A stretch of DNA of 32,000 nt from Nostoc punctiforme PCC 73102 (GCF_000020025.1 NC_010628.1:3450001-3482000); one strand, 5' to 3'; positions 8,415 through 15,328 are shown, counted from the stretch's first letter. Notes: generated from the sequence alone by a model not told the origin. A program made the numbers and translations.

Positions 8415-8630
8415 TTAGGTGTCCTCGTCATCACCCACCAAGTCGCTAGTACCTTTTGGGTGTGTTTCAAACGATATTTGGGAAATAATTGCCTTTGCAT
8501 CTTCTAACGCCAAACGGGTCTTTTGGTGTTTGTAGGCGATTCCCAGTTGGTTGCACAGAGAAAACACTTTTTCTACAGGTATACTGTAGTCGGCTGCTAT
8601 CTCTGCGATCGATAGGTCTGCAAAACCCAT
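8415..8630 (-). CDS. Small conserved hypothetical protein, IF2_N-like helical domain with an acidic tail
   Basis: 71 aa. SIAEIAADYSIPVEKVFSLCNQLGIAYKHQKTRLALEDAKAII resembles the short IF-2 N-terminal-type helical module. Coding status is inferred from this pattern only. Confidence 0.5.
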   Translation of the reverse strand: MGFADLSIAEIAADYSIPVEKVFSLCNQLGIAYKHQKTRLALEDAKAIISQISFETHPKGTSDLVGDDEDT

Positions 8631-8781: not shown

Positions 8782-9609
8782 TTAACCTTTTCCCCCAGTG
8801 AAGGTAACGCTTTGAATAAAGTAACGATTAAAAAAGGCGTAAATACCTAAAGCTGGTAGGGTAAAGACCATAGAAGCCGCCATAATGTAGTTCCAATAGC
8901 TGATGTATTGGCCTTTGAAGGTATTCAGCCCCAAAGGGAGGGTAAACATTTCTGGGTCAAATAGGATAACTATCGGCAGTAAAAAATTATTCCAACTTCC
9001 CATAAATACAAAAACTGCCTGTGCCGCTAATGCTGGTTTGGCTAGAGGTAAGACAATATGTCGGAAAATTCCAAAGGTATTTAAGCCATCGAGTTGAGCC
9101 GCTTCTTCTAGTTCTTTAGGAAAATTAACAAAAAACTGCCGCATCATGAAGATAAAAGTGGCATTCACCATGCTAGGCACAATCATGCCTTGGTAAGAAT
9201 TCAACCAACCGATCGCTTTTAAAATCAAAAATGTCGGAATTAGGGTGATTTGCGCTGGTACTGCCAGCACAGCCAAGATGAGAAAGAACCAAAAGCGCTT
9301 ACCTACAAAACGCAGTCTTGCCAGGGCATAACCAGCCATTGAATTTAACAACAAGTTTAAAAGCGTAACGCTAACGGCAATTACCACACTATTGAACAAC
9401 CAGCGCCAAAATAACGGTTCTTGGAGAAATATTTGCCTGTAGTTGTCAAGAGTAAAATTCTTGGGGAGAAAGTTGGGTTCACCACCGACAATCTCTGTTA
9501 GCGGCTTAAATGATGCTGAAAGCGCCCAGAGAAAGGGAATTAGGGTAACGATCGCATAAAGTGTCAGCAAGACGTATAGCAAGACTTTTAAGCCAGAGAT
9601 TTTAGTCAA
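8782..9609 (-). CDS. Carbohydrate ABC transporter permease (MalG/UgpE-like)
   Basis: 275 aa with 6 TM segments and the EAA loop EEAAQLDGLNTFGIFRHIVLPLAKPAL. The TTG start overlaps the upstream stop (TTGA at 9606-9609), suggesting translational coupling. Confidence 0.9.
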   Translation of the reverse strand: MTKISGLKVLLYVLLTLYAIVTLIPFLWALSASFKPLTEIVGGEPNFLPKNFTLDNYRQIFLQEPLFWRWLFNSVVIAVSVTLLNLLLNSMAGYALARLRFVGKRFWFFLILAVLAVPAQITLIPTFLILKAIGWLNSYQGMIVPSMVNATFIFMMRQFFVNFPKELEEAAQLDGLNTFGIFRHIVLPLAKPALAAQAVFVFMGSWNNFLLPIVILFDPEMFTLPLGLNTFKGQYISYWNYIMAASMVFTLPALGIYAFFNRYFIQSVTFTGGKG

Positions 9610-10514
9610 ATCCGTTCGCCTCCAAAAAGTCGCCGTTGAATCAAACTGATGGCAACGATCGCGGCTGCTAACAAAAATGCGATCGCAGCTGCATATCCCA
9701 TTTGTAAATTCCGAAACACAGCTTGGTAAATTAGCAGCACCACAGTTAAGGTAGCGTTGTTCGGGCCGCCAGTACCCCCAGAAAAGATGTAAGACTGGTC
9801 AAAAAGTTGAAAAGTCCCAATCACCCCCACTGCTACCACAAAGAAGGTTACAGGCTTAAGCAAGGGAAGGGTAATGTGGATAAATTGCTTCCATCCATTT
9901 GCGCCATCGAGTTCTGCGGCTTCATAAAGTGTTTTGGGTATATCTTGCAACGCCGCCAGATAAATCACCATGAAAAATGGCGCGGTTGACCAAATGTTCA
10001 TGATTATAATACCTTTGAGGGCAACAGATGGATCGCCCAACCAGTTATAAGTAGGTAGCCCTACAAAAGTGAGAAAATCGTTTAGTAGCCCATCGGTGTT
10101 ATAAATCCACATAAAGATCAGCGTCAGCACTGCTGAAGAGGTGACTGTGGGCAAAAAATAAAGGATGCGCCACCAGTTTTTACCGCGAATCCCAGAATTC
10201 AGAGTTACCGCCAGAATTAAAGCTAAGACTGTTTGAGTTGGCACAACAATAGCTACATATTGTGCTGTGTTTCTTAAAGCAATCCAAACCCTTTCATCTT
10301 CAGCTAATCGTGTGAAGTTCCGAAAACCGATGAACTCGTACTCAATACCGCCGAGAAGTCGGACTTTTTGCAAGGAAAGAAAAACGGCGTAGAGAATGGG
10401 TAAGACTACAAAAGTCCCCAAAACTAGAATGGTCGGCATCATGAACATATACCCAGCTAAGTTTTCTGTGATATTCCACCTGGGGTTACTCCGCCGCCTG
10501 TTGATTGCAAACAC
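9606..10514 (-). CDS. Carbohydrate ABC transporter permease (MalF/UgpA-like)
   Basis: 302 aa with the EAA loop YEAAELDGANGWKQFIHITLPLLKP and a multi-TM profile. Confidence 0.9.
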   Translation of the reverse strand: MFAINRRRSNPRWNITENLAGYMFMMPTILVLGTFVVLPILYAVFLSLQKVRLLGGIEYEFIGFRNFTRLAEDERVWIALRNTAQYVAIVVPTQTVLALILAVTLNSGIRGKNWWRILYFLPTVTSSAVLTLIFMWIYNTDGLLNDFLTFVGLPTYNWLGDPSVALKGIIIMNIWSTAPFFMVIYLAALQDIPKTLYEAAELDGANGWKQFIHITLPLLKPVTFFVVAVGVIGTFQLFDQSYIFSGGTGGPNNATLTVVLLIYQAVFRNLQMGYAAAIAFLLAAAIVAISLIQRRLFGGERI

Positions 10515-10746
10515 TACAGAACCTCCGTTTAATCCCGCACTAACCCGGCTGTAGAGATGGGTTGTGCATGATTATTGATCCTACTCCTGTCATTAAATTA
10601 AGTTTCTATTTTTGGAAAGCCTAGACGCAAAACGGCGATTTACGAGATGTCGGTTGTATGAGTTAGCTGCTTATGTAATTTAGGGAACTATATATCTAGC
10701 TCCCTTGGGGATGCTAATTAACCCGACTCAAGCAAGAGGACACAAA

Positions 10747-13194
10747 ATGTCATATACAGCCTACTTACGTTCGATTAAAAGTGAACTCCAGAGAACTGAT
10801 AAAACTCAAAAAAGCCTACGGTTAAAAACTATCATAGAACAGTTTGGCTACCAGCGTAGAAGTCAATCATTCATAGATAATTTTAATACTGCTCTTGGTG
10901 AATTGGGACTTTGTGCAAATCCTTGCTTGGATTTGTATATTCCACTAGATACAAAAATTGCTATTTCTATTAAAGGTGTAGAACCAATCAATAAAATAGC
11001 TGAATCTGAATCAATTTCAGTCAAACTACAAGAAGCAATTTCAGTCAAACATGATTTTTTCTACTACTTGTTTGATTTTGGCTCTGAACAAGAATATGAA
11101 CGATTTCAAGCATGTTTAGATTCTCATCAGCCAGTAGGTATTTTTTTGATTCCCCAAGTAGAAGATTTCTTCTCTGATACTGTTGTCAAAATATTTAATT
11201 ATGAACTAATTAGAAAATATCAATACGGAGGATATAATAGTATCCCAAAAGCTGCTACTAGAAAAATCCCTACAAGTCTTGCCTCAGATCAAGAGTGTGA
11301 CGATGAACAGGAAAATCCCATTTCTGATGCTAACATTTTTCAGTTTCATCGCTCAACTATGACCAGTATTATACTTGGTAATACTGGTTTAGAGTTGCTT
11401 GATTCGGAAAAATTTGATCGGCAGTTTGAACAGATATCTCTATCTGCCAATAAATATAATTCTGAACAGCTTTTTATTTTATTTCATTGTCCATCAGTAT
11501 TAGAAATCCAAGCTCATCAGCAAGAAGATGCTTTAGGATACTTGGTAGATAGAGTTGCCAGTAAAATTCCTTTTACTTTTACTCTCAGATGTAAATACCC
11601 AAATGAAGCCTCTCTTGAGCATAAAGAAGAAGTATATGCTCATTTTCGTCTACTGCTGGAACTTCCATATTATCAAATAGAGGAAGATGATGCATCTTTG
11701 CGAGATTATTTTGTAGATTTGCAAAAAGCTCAAATACAGGCTGAATCACAGTTATTGTTGAAGATAAAACCCGAACATTTTTACAGTCTGAAGTGGCAAC
11801 AAGAAAGTAAAGAATATATTTATCTCAAGTATTTTGCTATTAAAACCTTAGAAAGTCTAGGATATGAATTGTCTAATATTGGCTGTGAAGTTGAGTTGAC
11901 TTCTAAGGATGAGGAAACATCAGATGAAGATACATCAGATGATTATGAAGAGTATCAAAGCGAAATTATAGAAGTATATGTAAAAAATCAGGTAGTGGTT
12001 GAGATAGAAACTCTCAAATACCAAGAATTTCAGGATAATAATCTCTTTTTAGATCCCCTGAAAAGAGTTTTGAGGCAATCAAAAGTATGGCCGAATAAGC
12101 TAGAAAGTCTTTGGTTGGTAATTCCCGGTTTTGAGATTGCCCGTAACTATTACCAACTAAAAAAGGCTAAGGAAATCTTAGAATATAAGTTATCTGGATA
12201 TTATGGCGATCGCTTCCAGGTTGTAATCATGGCTCCTGATTATGAAAAACACCAATTAGTCCCAGTATCATTTGATTCTATTGAATATCCATCTTTTGGG
12301 TATGGGGTTAAAAAACCTAGTTTATTACAGACATATCCAGTTACTAATCGCGTTAAAGAATTTAAGCTGGACTTTAGCCAAGTAAAAGGTTTAAACGAAG
12401 AAAAAGACAAACTAGATAAACTTCTCAAGCTGCAATCTAAGGGACATAAGGGTTCAATTGGTGGAATTCTTTTCTATGGATTACCTGGATGTGGTAAAAC
12501 TCTACTGGCAAATGCTTTTGCTAATGAGTCTGGCAGATATTTCTTTAAATTCTCCCCTGCTGATATTGTCAGTGTTTGGATAGGTCAAAGTCAAAAAAAT
12601 ATTCGAGATATCTTTGCTCAAGCTAAGAAAAAAGCTCCTTCCGTTTTATTTATTGATGAGTTAGACAGTATTGGGTTTAATCGTAACGAAGACAACGCCC
12701 ATACAGACCAAAAAGCAACTATTAATCAATTACTCATAGAACTAAATAATCTTCAAAATAGTGACGTAATTGTGATAGCTGCTACTAATTATTTGAGCGG
12801 TATAGATAGTGCTTTGAAACGTTCTGGTAGATTGGATTGGAAGATTCCTATCTTTCCACCATCTCAAGTAGAAAGAATAGAACTCTTCATACACTACCTG
12901 TCAAAAATTGATATGAATCAGCTAGTTAACTTTGAAATGCTGGCAGAGAAAAGTATGAAGTTTACGTCATCAGATATCGAGTTAGTTTGTCGGGAAGTTA
13001 GAAATGCTATTCTTCTAGAAGAAATAAGTTCAGCTTTAACAACTTCCGATGTGATTACTTACATCAATAATCTACAAGATGGTGGTTTAAGTCTTAACCA
13101 AGAACAAGTCAAGGAATTTGTGGAAGAGTGTAAAAGAATGAGTGTGAAGAATCCTAAGTTAGAAACCCTGAAATTAGAATGGGCTTTGTATTAA
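10747..13194 (+). CDS. Large fusion protein: about 550 aa of uncharacterised N-terminal region plus a C-terminal classic-clade AAA ATPase module
   Basis: Motifs present: Walker A GLPGCGKT, Walker B VLFIDELD, sensor-1 IAATN, second region of homology with Arg residues SALKRSGRLD, and a helical lid. I recognise no motif in the N-terminal region. The track ORF begins at TTG 10705; the ATG at 10747 is preceded by AGAGGA. The gene is AT-rich relative to its neighbours. Confidence 0.85.
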   Translation: MSYTAYLRSIKSELQRTDKTQKSLRLKTIIEQFGYQRRSQSFIDNFNTALGELGLCANPCLDLYIPLDTKIAISIKGVEPINKIAESESISVKLQEAISVKHDFFYYLFDFGSEQEYERFQACLDSHQPVGIFLIPQVEDFFSDTVVKIFNYELIRKYQYGGYNSIPKAATRKIPTSLASDQECDDEQENPISDANIFQFHRSTMTSIILGNTGLELLDSEKFDRQFEQISLSANKYNSEQLFILFHCPSVLEIQAHQQEDALGYLVDRVASKIPFTFTLRCKYPNEASLEHKEEVYAHFRLLLELPYYQIEEDDASLRDYFVDLQKAQIQAESQLLLKIKPEHFYSLKWQQESKEYIYLKYFAIKTLESLGYELSNIGCEVELTSKDEETSDEDTSDDYEEYQSEIIEVYVKNQVVVEIETLKYQEFQDNNLFLDPLKRVLRQSKVWPNKLESLWLVIPGFEIARNYYQLKKAKEILEYKLSGYYGDRFQVVIMAPDYEKHQLVPVSFDSIEYPSFGYGVKKPSLLQTYPVTNRVKEFKLDFSQVKGLNEEKDKLDKLLKLQSKGHKGSIGGILFYGLPGCGKTLLANAFANESGRYFFKFSPADIVSVWIGQSQKNIRDIFAQAKKKAPSVLFIDELDSIGFNRNEDNAHTDQKATINQLLIELNNLQNSDVIVIAATNYLSGIDSALKRSGRLDWKIPIFPPSQVERIELFIHYLSKIDMNQLVNFEMLAEKSMKFTSSDIELVCREVRNAILLEEISSALTTSDVITYINNLQDGGLSLNQEQVKEFVEECKRMSVKNPKLETLKLEWALY

Positions 13195-13366
13195 CAATAT
13201 GCTATTACAAATAGCGAGCGCTACTTTTTTAGTGCCGAAATAAATATACTCAATTACACGATCGCTTGAACCTGATTGAGTAAATCTCTGGTTTAAGAAT
13301 GCGATCGCTTTTGATTGTGTATATTTTTGTTGAGCGATCGGCAGACTTTCAAATATTCCTATCCTG

Positions 13367-13648
13367 CTATTGTTTAGGGTCGCGTTTGACGTGAAAGCAG
13401 GCGATAATAGTAATTACATCTTGTTCCAAGATATACATCATTCCATAAGGAAATCGGCGTATTAAAACTCGTCGTACTTGTCGATAAACTTGAGGATAAG
13501 CTAAAGGGTTGCGTCCGATTAATGCCAAACTGCTATCGACAGCACGTACAAATTCTGAACCTAATCCAGAACTACGTTGCTCGTACCATTCAAAACCATC
13601 TTGGATATCAAGCTCTGCTTCTGGGCTAATAATTAACTGATAAATCAT
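13367..13648 (-). CDS. Type II toxin-antitoxin system toxin, RelE/ParE family
   Basis: 93 aa. The pattern A..D...I..Y......G...F......L..I..NP..YP......+RR.L+RRFPY...Y......+.I+...H..RDP is typical of ParE-like plasmid-stabilisation toxins. The start overlaps the antitoxin stop (ATGA at 13645-13648). Confidence 0.85.
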   Translation of the reverse strand: MIYQLIISPEAELDIQDGFEWYEQRSSGLGSEFVRAVDSSLALIGRNPLAYPQVYRQVRRVLIRRFPYGMMYILEQDVITIIACFHVKRDPKQ

Positions 13649-13866
13649 TGAGAAAAACCCAGTCTTTGCTTAACCTCTTCCCAGGTTGAACCCTGATTTG
13701 GGTTTTGACGATGTGTTTCTAAACGTCTATCCAATTCTTGTTTTTGCTCTTCGCTCAGAATTACTGCATTAGTGTCAGTTAGAATGCTATCCCATAAATC
13801 CTCTGCAAGTTGTATTCGTTCGGATACGCTTAATTGGGAAATATCAATGTTTAATAGGGGATGCAT
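13645..13866 (-). CDS. Putative addiction-module antitoxin (TIGR02574 / Unstab_antitox-like)
   Basis: 73 aa with LSVSERIQLAEDLWDSI...LSEEQKQELDRRLETHRQNP...TWEEVKQRL, the usual signature of this antitoxin family. It lies upstream of the toxin and is translationally coupled to it. Confidence 0.75.
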   Translation of the reverse strand: MHPLLNIDISQLSVSERIQLAEDLWDSILTDTNAVILSEEQKQELDRRLETHRQNPNQGSTWEEVKQRLGFSQ

Positions 13867-14068
13867 AGTTATTTACTATTGTTAACTAACATTTACAATT
13901 TTAAGTCAATTTTTTGCTAGTTGTTTTGTTTGCTTCATTATGTATCTTCGGTTGAGATAGAGTTATTAATCCCGATTTTAAGTCATTACTCATTCAGATC
14001 CCCAGATTTCTAACTTCTGCAAGAAGTCGGGTTTTGATTCGTTATGAGTACAAAAAACTTGCTATGCA

Positions 14069-15328
14069 TTACTCCATCGCCTTAATTTGCTGATTAGCTT
14101 CATTCTGTGCCTTCATCATCGCTTGCTTTAATGGTTGTTGCCCCAACAAGGCGCTGACAAACTGGTTCTCAAAGTTATTCACGATCACACTTGGATATTT
14201 ACCCACCTGCCAAGATGTAGCATAATCGACTCCCGCCACTAATGGCGATCGCAGTGCATCTTGGTCATAGCCCAAATTCTTTGCCACTGATTTACGTGTT
14301 GGCAAAGCAAATCCTGTTCCTGTCCACTTCTGCATTCCTTCTTTACCCGTGAGATAAGAAATCAACTTCCAGGCTTCGGCTTTGTGCTGTGCTTGCTTGT
14401 TCATCACATAGGCAACTGTAAAGACCATTGTGCCTTTTTTGCCGTTAATCGTAGGTACCGGCGCGGTAGCAAACTCTACTTGGGGAAAGGTTTCAGTTAA
14501 ATAAGGAATTGCCCAGTTACCCTCAATCACCATTGCTACTTTACTCTGACCAAACATTTCACTACCTGAGTTTGTTCCTACATCAGATTTTTGGGCGGAG
14601 GAACGGTCTTTTTGATACTGGTCTACTACTAACTCTAAACCCTTTAAACCTGCCTCACTCGCAAAGGTAGCAGAACCATTTTGATCGATGAGCTGCCCAC
14701 CAAAGGCTTTAATTTTATAAGCCTGACGCGCTAATTCGGGAATTTCCCCAAAGCCGTATTTATTAAGTTTGCCTATCAATTGTTTCGAGTAGTTACGTAA
14801 TTCATCCCAAGTAGCTGGCGGATTACTCAACCCTGCCGCGGCGAATGCTTTTTTGTTATAAAACAGGGCAAGGGTGGAATAGTCTTTGGGAAGACCATAA
14901 ATATGATTTTGATATTTGAAACTATCGAGTAGGGTATCTTCAAAATCCGTTAGGTCAAATTCGGGGGTAATGTAACTTTCTAACGGTTCTAGAACATTCT
15001 GACTCATCAAGAAAGGAGCTTCCAGCGCATCGAGATAAAAGACATCGGGTGCTGCTTCCCCAACCAAACGAGTTTTGATTACATCCATGTATTGGTCGGA
15101 GATTACCTCATATTTGACCTTAATAGTTGGATGTTGTACCTCAAACTCTCGCAATACCTGTCTCAAGAGTTTTTGCTCAACAGGAGAACCTCCCCAGCCA
15201 CTAAGTTTGATACTAACTGCGGTAGATGCTAAGGGTTTGCTTGGTAATTGTAGACTTTGACAAGCAATAATAGCGATCGCGATCGCCATTACTAATCCCA
15301 AAAAATTAAATAATCTTTTTTTGATCAC
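14069..15328 (-). CDS. Sugar ABC transporter substrate-binding lipoprotein (solute-binding family 1)
   Basis: 419 aa with a signal peptide carrying a lipobox-like AIIAC. Family-1 SBP patterns are present (WGG...Q...L...F....P.I.V; DVFYLD; ALFYNK; ATWDEL). Confidence 0.9.
   Translation of the reverse strand: MIKKRLFNFLGLVMAIAIAIIACQSLQLPSKPLASTAVSIKLSGWGGSPVEQKLLRQVLREFEVQHPTIKVKYEVISDQYMDVIKTRLVGEAAPDVFYLDALEAPFLMSQNVLEPLESYITPEFDLTDFEDTLLDSFKYQNHIYGLPKDYSTLALFYNKKAFAAAGLSNPPATWDELRNYSKQLIGKLNKYGFGEIPELARQAYKIKAFGGQLIDQNGSATFASEAGLKGLELVVDQYQKDRSSAQKSDVGTNSGSEMFGQSKVAMVIEGNWAIPYLTETFPQVEFATAPVPTINGKKGTMVFTVAYVMNKQAQHKAEAWKLISYLTGKEGMQKWTGTGFALPTRKSVAKNLGYDQDALRSPLVAGVDYATSWQVGKYPSVIVNNFENQFVSALLGQQPLKQAMMKAQNEANQQIKAME

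Follow-up and report, generated by a model that had tools for sequence, protein, structure and literature searches.

A gene in the chromosome of Nostoc punctiforme PCC 73102 is predicted to encode a four-module protein in which an intact classic-clade AAA ATPase follows a small alpha/beta N-domain, a probable degenerate AAA-like domain and a restriction-endonuclease-like domain. It lies at 10747-13194 on the + strand of the window, that is, the whole 32,000-nucleotide stretch analyzed here (NC_010628.1:3450001-3482000), from whose first letter all positions are counted. It belongs to a very rare and uncharacterised family, an unusual fusion within the known theme of an AAA motor combined with an endonuclease-fold module. 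Structural models show the four-module architecture, with the first two domains (D1 and D2) less certain than the nuclease-fold domain (D3) and the AAA module. Concerning its role, the most likely reading, which we hold tentatively, is that of a single-protein conflict factor directed against mobile elements or phage; a defence role is neither refuted nor established and stays unproven. A preliminary description of the stretch had presented the gene as an uncharacterised N-terminal region, possibly with a nuclease core, fused to a classic AAA ATPase. Its architectural intuition was largely right; the probable second, AAA-like domain that our models place at residues ~100-348 was overlooked. 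The features are the following:

10747-13194, + strand: complete open reading frame (ORF) of the four-module AAA protein (ORF listing, start common to homologues, Shine-Dalgarno-like motif, dN/dS).
10747-10980, + strand: D1, residues 1-78, predicted small alpha/beta N-domain (AlphaFold2 secondary structure).
10981-11046, + strand: variable linker 1, residues 79-100 (pLDDT below 50 at residues 79-89; length and sequence variation throughout the family).
11047-11790, + strand: D2, residues 101-348, probable degenerate AAA+-like alpha/beta domain with helical lid (Foldseek).
11791-12282, + strand: D3, residues 349-512, predicted restriction-endonuclease-like domain of the PD-(D/E)xK fold (AlphaFold2 model, fold matches).
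11902-11964, + strand: acidic low-complexity loop, residues 386-406, between D3 strands 1 and 2 (pLDDT below 50).
12382-13191, + strand: active classic-clade AAA module, residues 546-815 (Pfam AAA, PDB, invariant catalytic residues).
12478-12501, 12577-12585, 12643-12660 and 12808-12837, + strand: sub-sites of the AAA module, namely Walker A, pore loop W611-I-G613, Walker B and the arginines of the second region of homology (SRH), which the lid completes.
13195-14068, no strand: cargo gap of variable content that separates the AAA gene from the substrate-binding protein (SBP) gene, here with ParE (13367-13648, - strand) and an antitoxin (13645-13866, - strand).

Read from the ATG at 10747, the ORF comprises 815 codons and a stop; an alternative TTG start is located at 10705. 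The ATG is the likely start because homologues begin with MSYTAYL or MTYTAYL and because it is preceded by a Shine-Dalgarno-like motif (AAGAGGA) at 10734-10740. This is a real gene that selection maintains, since 120 homologues have the N-terminal region and the ratio of non-synonymous to synonymous substitution rates (dN/dS) is close to 0.1. This ratio was 0.09-0.13 over the whole gene and about 0.1 in every domain (0.07-0.15 in D2, 0.06-0.10 in D3, 0.04-0.11 in the AAA module), values by which all folded domains are judged to be under strong purifying selection; in linker 1 it rose to 0.3-0.7. A scan for promoters and terminators gave nothing above the shuffled expectation, and no terminal, transposon-like inverted or direct repeats were identified flanking the gene.

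The C-terminal ~270 residues are, judged from their motifs, an intact classic-clade AAA module, in agreement with the preliminary description. Pfam AAA (PF00004) matched residues 574-701 with an E-value of 1.6e-37 (129.3 bits against a cut-off of 21.2) and AAA_lid_3 matched weakly, while NCBIfam returned partial matches to FtsH, CDC48 and PAN. The closest PDB sequences were the ATPase domains of p97/Cdc48/NSF, aligned to residues 572-765. Walker A (GLPGCGKT, residues 578-585), Walker B (VLFIDELD), sensor-1 (IAATN) and the SRH (SALKRSGRLD) are all present, and their key residues K584/T585, D637/E638, N681, R692 and R695 are invariant in 70 orthologues. The aromatic pore loop W611-I612-G613 is likewise invariant in these proteins except for one I-to-L change. 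The sequence strings quoted in the preliminary description were all found in place: these AAA motifs, LRLKTIIEQFGYQRRSQSFIDNFNTALGELGL at the N-terminus, KEYIYLKYFAIKTLESLGYELSNIGCEVELT from residue 355 (nt ~11809), SKDEETSDEDTSDDYEEYQSE and EIIEVYVKNQVVVEIETLK.

The ~545 residues that precede the AAA module proved as uncharacterised as had been supposed. Residues 1-540 showed no match in Pfam, NCBIfam, PADLOC or PDB, the last searched with the single sequence and with a profile. AlphaFold2 (AF2) modelling of this region on a 24-sequence alignment gave a mean predicted local distance difference test (pLDDT) score of 79.7 and a predicted template modelling (pTM) score of 0.70, with disordered linkers at residues 79-89, 179-190, 388-400 and 518-540.

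D3 was also modelled alone (AF2; pLDDT 84.8, pTM 0.80), with the topology a-bbb-a-b-a-bb, where a is a helix and b a strand. The alpha-beta-beta-beta-alpha-beta core of the PD-(D/E)xK fold is present in this model, in domain numbering, as H7-22, E30-37, E57-64, E68-72, H87-99 and E106-110. The top BFVD match was annotated 'Restriction endonuclease, Synechococcus phage S-CAM7' (E 4e-3, probability 0.98, TM 0.50) and further ones were Exo8-PDDEXK, MmcB-like and Csr/MutH/HJR nucleases; PDB fold matches, all weak, included YaeQ, the bunyavirus cap-snatching endonuclease, XPF and Zip2-Spo16. Pfam PDDEXK_3 touched two of the 24 family members at E about 0.01, below threshold. A PDB sequence-profile search with D3 came back empty, and no membership in the PD-(D/E)xK clan was found in Pfam above threshold. 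A signature common to the core family and to more distant relatives consists of E-[SN]-x-E-H in helix 1, P-D in strand 2 and h-E-h-E-T-L in strand 3. In the N. punctiforme protein, the corresponding residues are E353 and E356 (helix 1), E409 (strand 2) and E419-I-E421-T422-L (strand 3), together with E463/R466/N467 and P497-D498-Y499. Among 63 Nostocaceae orthologues E353, E356, E419, E421, T422, E463, R466, N467 and P497-D498-Y499 are invariant or nearly so, and the clade has changed D355 to K/T/S, H357 to Y and P408 to I/V. The preliminary description had suspected a PD-(D/E)xK-like core without a clean ExK motif. The fold part of this claim is supported, as nt 11800-12280 model as an alpha-beta-beta-beta-alpha-beta fold without the ExK lysine, but cleavage by the N. 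punctiforme protein and its clade appears doubtful because the aspartate of the PD motif is replaced by E, Q or P.

As also proposed previously, the core is interrupted by an acidic insert, SKDEETSDEDTSDDYEEYQSE, which forms a loop between D3 strands 1 and 2 that is disordered both in the model of residues 1-540 and in that of D3 alone. The Nostocaceae clade has the longest and most acidic form of this insert, which varies in the rest of the family. The loop contains a 15-nt tandem duplication (11908-11922/11923-11937, direct repeat D6) encoding DEETS/DEDTS. Linker 1 similarly carries a 19-nt repeat whose copies are 24 nt apart and in frame (11008-11026 and 11032-11050, ESISVKL/EAISVKH; this is direct repeat D2, a label separate from that of the domain). 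The in-frame repeats in both segments suggest that the disordered stretches grow by local duplication.

Two distant relatives of ~560-600 residues, P0163 (L103, 1561-3366) and P0136 (L104, 4443-6119), end just past the nuclease-fold domain. Both are complete genes with neither an AAA module nor a neighbouring AAA gene, and each sits behind a small or mid-sized unknown gene in an apparent operon. Therefore, the nuclease-fold module also occurs outside the AAA fusion. Another AAA-less relative, P0133, may be cut by the end of its contig, and its cluster includes a 679-residue protein.

D2 is the best-conserved portion of the N-terminal region, with D103, F109, F111, Q121, P129, P136, F141, E153, F246, C248, P249, H299, E305 and P307 invariant. 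When the model of residues 1-540 was compared with the PDB using Foldseek, the top 50 matches were nearly all AAA+ ATPases, with a few other P-loop NTPases; they included NSF, ORC/Cdc6, Hda (3bos, probability 0.84), spastin, Msp1, DnaC, ClpB, Rpt and RFC. The domain has no Walker A, the P-loop position being occupied by IPQVEDFFS, and lacks the DE of Walker B (FILFHCPS). By inspection, D2 is collinear with the AAA domain of the same protein: strand 1 is followed by IPQVEDFFS at the P-loop position, IFQF...IILG corresponds to FFKF...VWIG (strand 2 and pore loop), FILFHCPS to VLFIDELDS and LLLELPY to WKIPIFPP. The second of these pairs is the sole segment that hhalign also aligned, as a single local pairing of 21 columns over beta2 and the pore-loop region (E 0.02, probability 2%), and homology between D2 and the AAA domain at the sequence level was rejected at that probability. 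Since hhalign shows no such homology, the assignment of a dead AAA domain rests on the fold matches and the collinear motifs, on which basis D2 is probably a degenerate AAA-like domain.

D1 is predicted to follow the order helix-strand-helix-helix-strand-strand (H3-17, E21-25, H26-32, H40-52, E55-58, E70-75; pLDDT 75-90 in AF2). Read from this secondary-structure order alone, its topology may be winged-helix-like. The extreme N-terminus had been described as a small helical module; a small alpha/beta module of ~78 residues is indeed predicted there. No profile match to a Cdc48/NSF-type N-domain was found, and the secondary-structure order of D1 differs from that of such domains.

Compared with Cdc48/p97, NSF, FtsH and PAN, the AAA module is alike in Walker A and B, the sensor-1 asparagine, the two SRH arginines, pore loop 1 and the lid. 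However, the protein has no Cdc48-type N-domain, protease domain or membrane anchor, its N-terminal region of 540 residues is unrelated in sequence to theirs, and its full-length NCBIfam scores are far under all family cut-offs (for CDC48, 156 bits against 803). The sole PADLOC families matched were IetA (IetAS, Gao_Iet) and the CBASS TRIP13/Cap6, both classic-type AAA proteins. Membership in either was rejected, as only the AAA module matched (positions 108-343 of the IetA profile) and the NCBIfam IteA score was 112 bits against 510; neither an IetS protease nor a HORMA partner was found nearby, nor was any protease a conserved neighbour. The FtsH-type component of the predicted MoxR-vWA ternary conflict systems pairs a dead ATPase domain at its N-terminus with a live one at its C-terminus (Kaur et al. 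2020, PMC7159879), and predicted Type III-A CoCoNuT loci encode SpoVK/CDC48-like tandem ATPases beside an inactivated PD-(D/E)xK protein (Bell et al. 2024, PMC11090510). These are the closest published parallels, themselves only predicted: both resemble our protein in the layout of a dead followed by a live classic AAA domain, and CoCoNuT also in the association with a restriction-endonuclease-fold module. They differ in that here the nuclease fold is fused between the two ATPase-like domains of one polypeptide, and no MoxR, vWA, McrBC or CoCoNuT neighbours were found in the contexts examined. The logic of a reader domain, a ring NTPase and an endonuclease fold is shared with McrBC as a functional analogy only. 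McrBC combines an AAA+ motor and a PD-(D/E)xK nuclease with an N-terminal DNA reader, but McrB is from another AAA+ clade and depends on McrC as a separate subunit; no McrB or McrC profile in Pfam, NCBIfam or PADLOC matched. Concerning the active site, BamHI uses D94, E111 and E113, a D...E-x-E variant with glutamate in place of the lysine. The family consensus P-D ... E-x-E is reminiscent of this arrangement, although our searches detected no sequence similarity or significant structural similarity to BamHI and the Nostocaceae clade has E, Q or P in place of the aspartate.

A search with residues 1-545 retrieved 120 homologues, nearly all of ~800-850 residues with the same C-terminal AAA domain and annotated merely as 'ATP-binding protein'. 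They form three groups: the Nostocaceae clade (69-96% identity); a group at ~47-50% identity from Nostoc and Leptolyngbya, which includes a Nostoc NIES-2111 plasmid and a second copy in N. linckia NIES-25; and a group at 30-40% identity from Bacteroidota (Microscilla, Cytophagales), Ignavibacteria and Spirochaetota/Leptospiraceae. The family is extremely small: 61 clusters emerged when 1.84 billion representatives were searched exhaustively with a profile, and a scan of 185,579 species genomes gave 88 matches. The gene is present in a minority of cyanobacteria.

Several copies are carried by plasmids or decayed. The homologue of the model strain Nostoc/Anabaena PCC 7120 (L080, NC_003267.1 10436-12871; WP_010994073.1), 69% identical, is carried by the conjugative plasmid pCC7120gamma. 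It is flanked there by a nuclease-A-inhibitor-family gene, a DUF4112 gene and insertion sequence (IS) elements, in a neighbourhood that also holds an integrase, ParA/ParB and TnpB. A decayed copy is found on the Nostoc MS1 plasmid pNSMS103 (L081). Truncated, split or decayed copies also occur at L004, L008, L060, L061, L072, L075 and L089, through premature stops, splits at the D3-AAA linker and fragmentation; the L004 copy, from a strain 96% identical to the window, stops after 553 residues. Base composition was foreign in all cyanobacterial hosts, where the gene has a GC content of 0.31-0.34 and a third-position GC content (GC3) of 0.20-0.28, whereas flanks have a GC content of 0.40-0.55. 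The gene thus lies 6-16 GC points under its flanks in every one of these hosts, among which synonymous divergence reaches ~1; despite this divergence GC3 remains low, which indicates that the composition of the gene has not ameliorated. In two Bacteroidota loci, the gene GC roughly equals that of the flanks. The plasmid copies, the patchy spread across phyla and the foreign base composition show a family of mobile origin, followed by long residence in the Nostocaceae.

This residence is documented by synteny. About 55 of the 65 Nostocaceae loci have the order psbV, a 71-residue ORF and two ATP-binding cassette (ABC) permease genes (all on the - strand), the AAA gene (+), the gap, the SBP gene (-) and a major facilitator superfamily (MFS) gene (+), an order common to Nostoc, Desmonostoc, Dendronalium, Calothrix and Tolypothrix. 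A sugar ABC-transporter operon on the - strand (SBP and two permeases; 8782-10514 and 14069-15328) is hence split by the + strand AAA gene and the gap. At L016, L030, L036 and L057, the AAA gene is still beside psbV but without the permeases and SBP. On this evidence, the AAA gene is judged to be an old insertion into the sugar ABC-transporter operon of an ancestor of many Nostocaceae, and one that was then vertically inherited. The preliminary description had seen an acquired islet; as a recent acquisition this does not hold, given the same site across Nostocaceae genera and the strong purifying selection. As a separate observation, the 71-residue ORF in the psbV-permease interval (8415-8630, - strand) recurs at 58-100% identity in almost every syntenic Nostocaceae locus, without a change of position.

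The gap between the AAA and SBP genes varied from ~0 to ~6.6 kb and differed in content across 25 loci, its cargo turning over even among strains with flanks 96-99% identical. In N. punctiforme, it holds the ParE toxin (ParE_toxin, E 5e-6) and antitoxin (Unstab_antitox, E 4e-18; both Pfam) 170 bp downstream of the AAA gene and on the opposite strand. Other cargoes were PhD/PIN (VapBC) pairs in 10-16 loci and other PIN pairs; the A and B components of the PADLOC candidate system PDC-M36 (E 6.6e-247 and 2.2e-57); a KAP NTPase of 1040 residues with QatA/PifA-like matches; a TPR-CHAT protein with a trypsin-like protease; and two alpha/beta-hydrolases. The toxin-antitoxin (TA) pair had been cited as a sign of a defence role, but ParE and/or the antitoxin occur in only four of ~55 syntenic loci and in no non-syntenic context, as one of many cargoes. 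In 13 syntenic loci (for example L058 12476-13468 and L002 12532-13449), the AAA gene is directly followed, in its own orientation, by an alpha/beta-hydrolase gene (Hydrolase_4/S33/S9-like, ~305-330 residues), the 13 proteins being 64-76% identical across the clade; it is probably an ancestral neighbour lost in N. punctiforme and most lineages. As a partner it was rejected, since N. punctiforme, the majority of syntenic loci and every other context lack it. The AAA gene hence lies at the fixed edge of an insertion hotspot for TA and defence cargo, a location that is suggestive.

No partner gene was conserved across at least 12 independent contexts. Because of this, the view that the gene is a stand-alone, single-protein unit, already proposed in the preliminary description, is reasonable. 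Some contexts are rich in conflict-related genes: HsdM, REase-ARP and an ADP-ribosylglycohydrolase at L101, PIN, HerA/TrwB-like and dynamin-like genes at L090, and HigB and CHAT-STAND-TPR in the second Nostoc clade. A serine recombinase or transposase is close to the gene at L089 and L064; no recombinase was consistently linked to it.

The protein, as modelled, combines four parts: the alpha/beta N-domain, the AAA+-like domain without P-loop or Walker B acids, the endonuclease-fold domain and the intact AAA domain with its aromatic pore loop. It would presumably assemble into a hexameric ring, as do other classic AAA proteins. The C-terminal tier would hydrolyse ATP and thread or remodel a substrate through the W-I-G pore loops, while the upper tiers (dead AAA, nuclease fold and N-domain) may recognise a nucleic acid or nucleoprotein target, which, in the clades with the P-D...E-x-E site, they might also cut. 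In the Nostocaceae clade, with its remodelled site and an acidic, possibly DNA-mimicking loop, D3 may bind or gate instead of cleaving. The boldest form of the conflict-factor reading would make the protein the first single-polypeptide nuclease machine powered by a classic AAA motor, a lone anti-phage or anti-plasmid factor and the long-lived founder of the Nostocaceae hotspot, which we regard as unlikely.

Several observations weigh against a conflict role or against the architecture on which it leans. Many of the independent contexts are housekeeping (MFS, GST, HPP, hemA, chorismate synthase, dNK, TrmB), those at L055, L056, L076-L078, L089, L100 and L102 mainly so. The association with defence islands is therefore mixed, and the co-location at the hotspot in the adjacent gap represents a single evolutionary locus and not independent evidence. 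Conserved synteny in ~55 species with a dN/dS of ~0.1 would sooner be expected of a domesticated or housekeeping gene than of an immune gene of fast turnover. A conserved chromosomal context was one half of a finding that the preliminary description had set against a conflict role; the other half, homology of the N-terminal region to a housekeeping adaptor, was not found. No family member was present among 2.9 million viral contigs, by which a phage origin was also rejected; no PADLOC model covers the N-terminal region; and no mention of the PCC 7120 homologue was found in the literature under alr8015, a locus tag inferred from accession numbering and possibly wrong. As for the domains, the fold matches of D3 are weak (best E 4e-3), its consensus P-D ... 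E-x-E-T-L has an acidic residue at the canonical lysine position, and of the 63 Nostocaceae orthologues, 51 have E, 8 have Q and 4 have P at position 409, the family PD aspartate. The Foldseek matches of D2 are also weak (E 8e-3 to 0.1, target-normalised TM at most 0.43), and its hhalign comparison with the AAA domain of the same protein was not significant. Finally, classic-clade AAA motors are known to thread proteins and not DNA, and an ATP-driven nuclease is not the default expectation for them.

The strongest alternative is a domesticated housekeeping segregase or unfoldase directed to nucleic acids, for example in repair, chromosome maintenance or RNA quality control, in which D3 and the N-domain would bind without cutting and the AAA module would extract or unfold a protein, with no part in conflict. 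The fixed position in ~55 Nostocaceae species, the retention of the AAA gene where the ABC genes were lost, the low dN/dS of all domains and the many housekeeping contexts fit this explanation. So do the changes of D409 to E/Q/P, D355 to K/T/S and H357 to Y, which suggest that cleavage was lost and binding retained, and the intact aromatic pore loop, which is typical of protein-threading classic AAA proteins. A core function, however, would not be expected to be so dispensable or patchy: the gene is confined to a minority of cyanobacteria and extremely rare overall, it has plasmid-borne and duplicated copies as well as truncated or split ones, one of them in the 96% identical case of L004, and its GC3 is persistently foreign. 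We consider such a remodeller somewhat unlikely.

Less probable still, and in our judgement improbable, is a selfish gene for element maintenance that would stabilise a plasmid or island, exclude competitors, or generate or process DNA ends at the hotspot, the chromosomal copy being the founder of the islet. The copy on the conjugative plasmid beside ParA/ParB, an integrase, TnpB and IS elements and those on two other Nostoc plasmids point in this direction, as do the constant position of the gene beside a gap with cargo that changes between strains with flanks 96-99% identical and the serine recombinase or transposase near the L089 and L064 copies. Yet the gene has neither terminal repeats, inverted or direct, nor a consistently linked recombinase, many copies are in ordinary chromosomal contexts, and a long vertical persistence under strong purifying selection would be unusual for a purely selfish gene. 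The notion that the AAA protein and the adjacent ParE/antitoxin pair form one abortive-infection unit has the short distance of 170 bp in its favour, but is highly improbable and, as a TA partnership, refuted by the synteny comparison, the pair being on the opposite strand, replaced in about 50 of 55 syntenic loci by VapBC, PDC-M36, KAP NTPase, CHAT-TPR, hydrolases or nothing, and absent from all non-syntenic contexts.

If the protein were a housekeeping remodeller, it would be of modest interest, whereas ATP-dependent nuclease or anti-phage activity would raise that interest sharply. The plasmid copy of PCC 7120 offers a tractable system for genetics, and the gap adjacent to the AAA gene provides a well-defined Nostoc hotspot in which to find TA and defence cargo. 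The family also supplies a natural comparison between a canonical-site clade in variable contexts and plasmids and a remodelled-site clade long fixed at one chromosomal position. The combination of a classic AAA motor, an endonuclease fold and a dead ATPase tier, if true, would represent a new coupling of ATP to the recognition or cleavage of nucleic acids.

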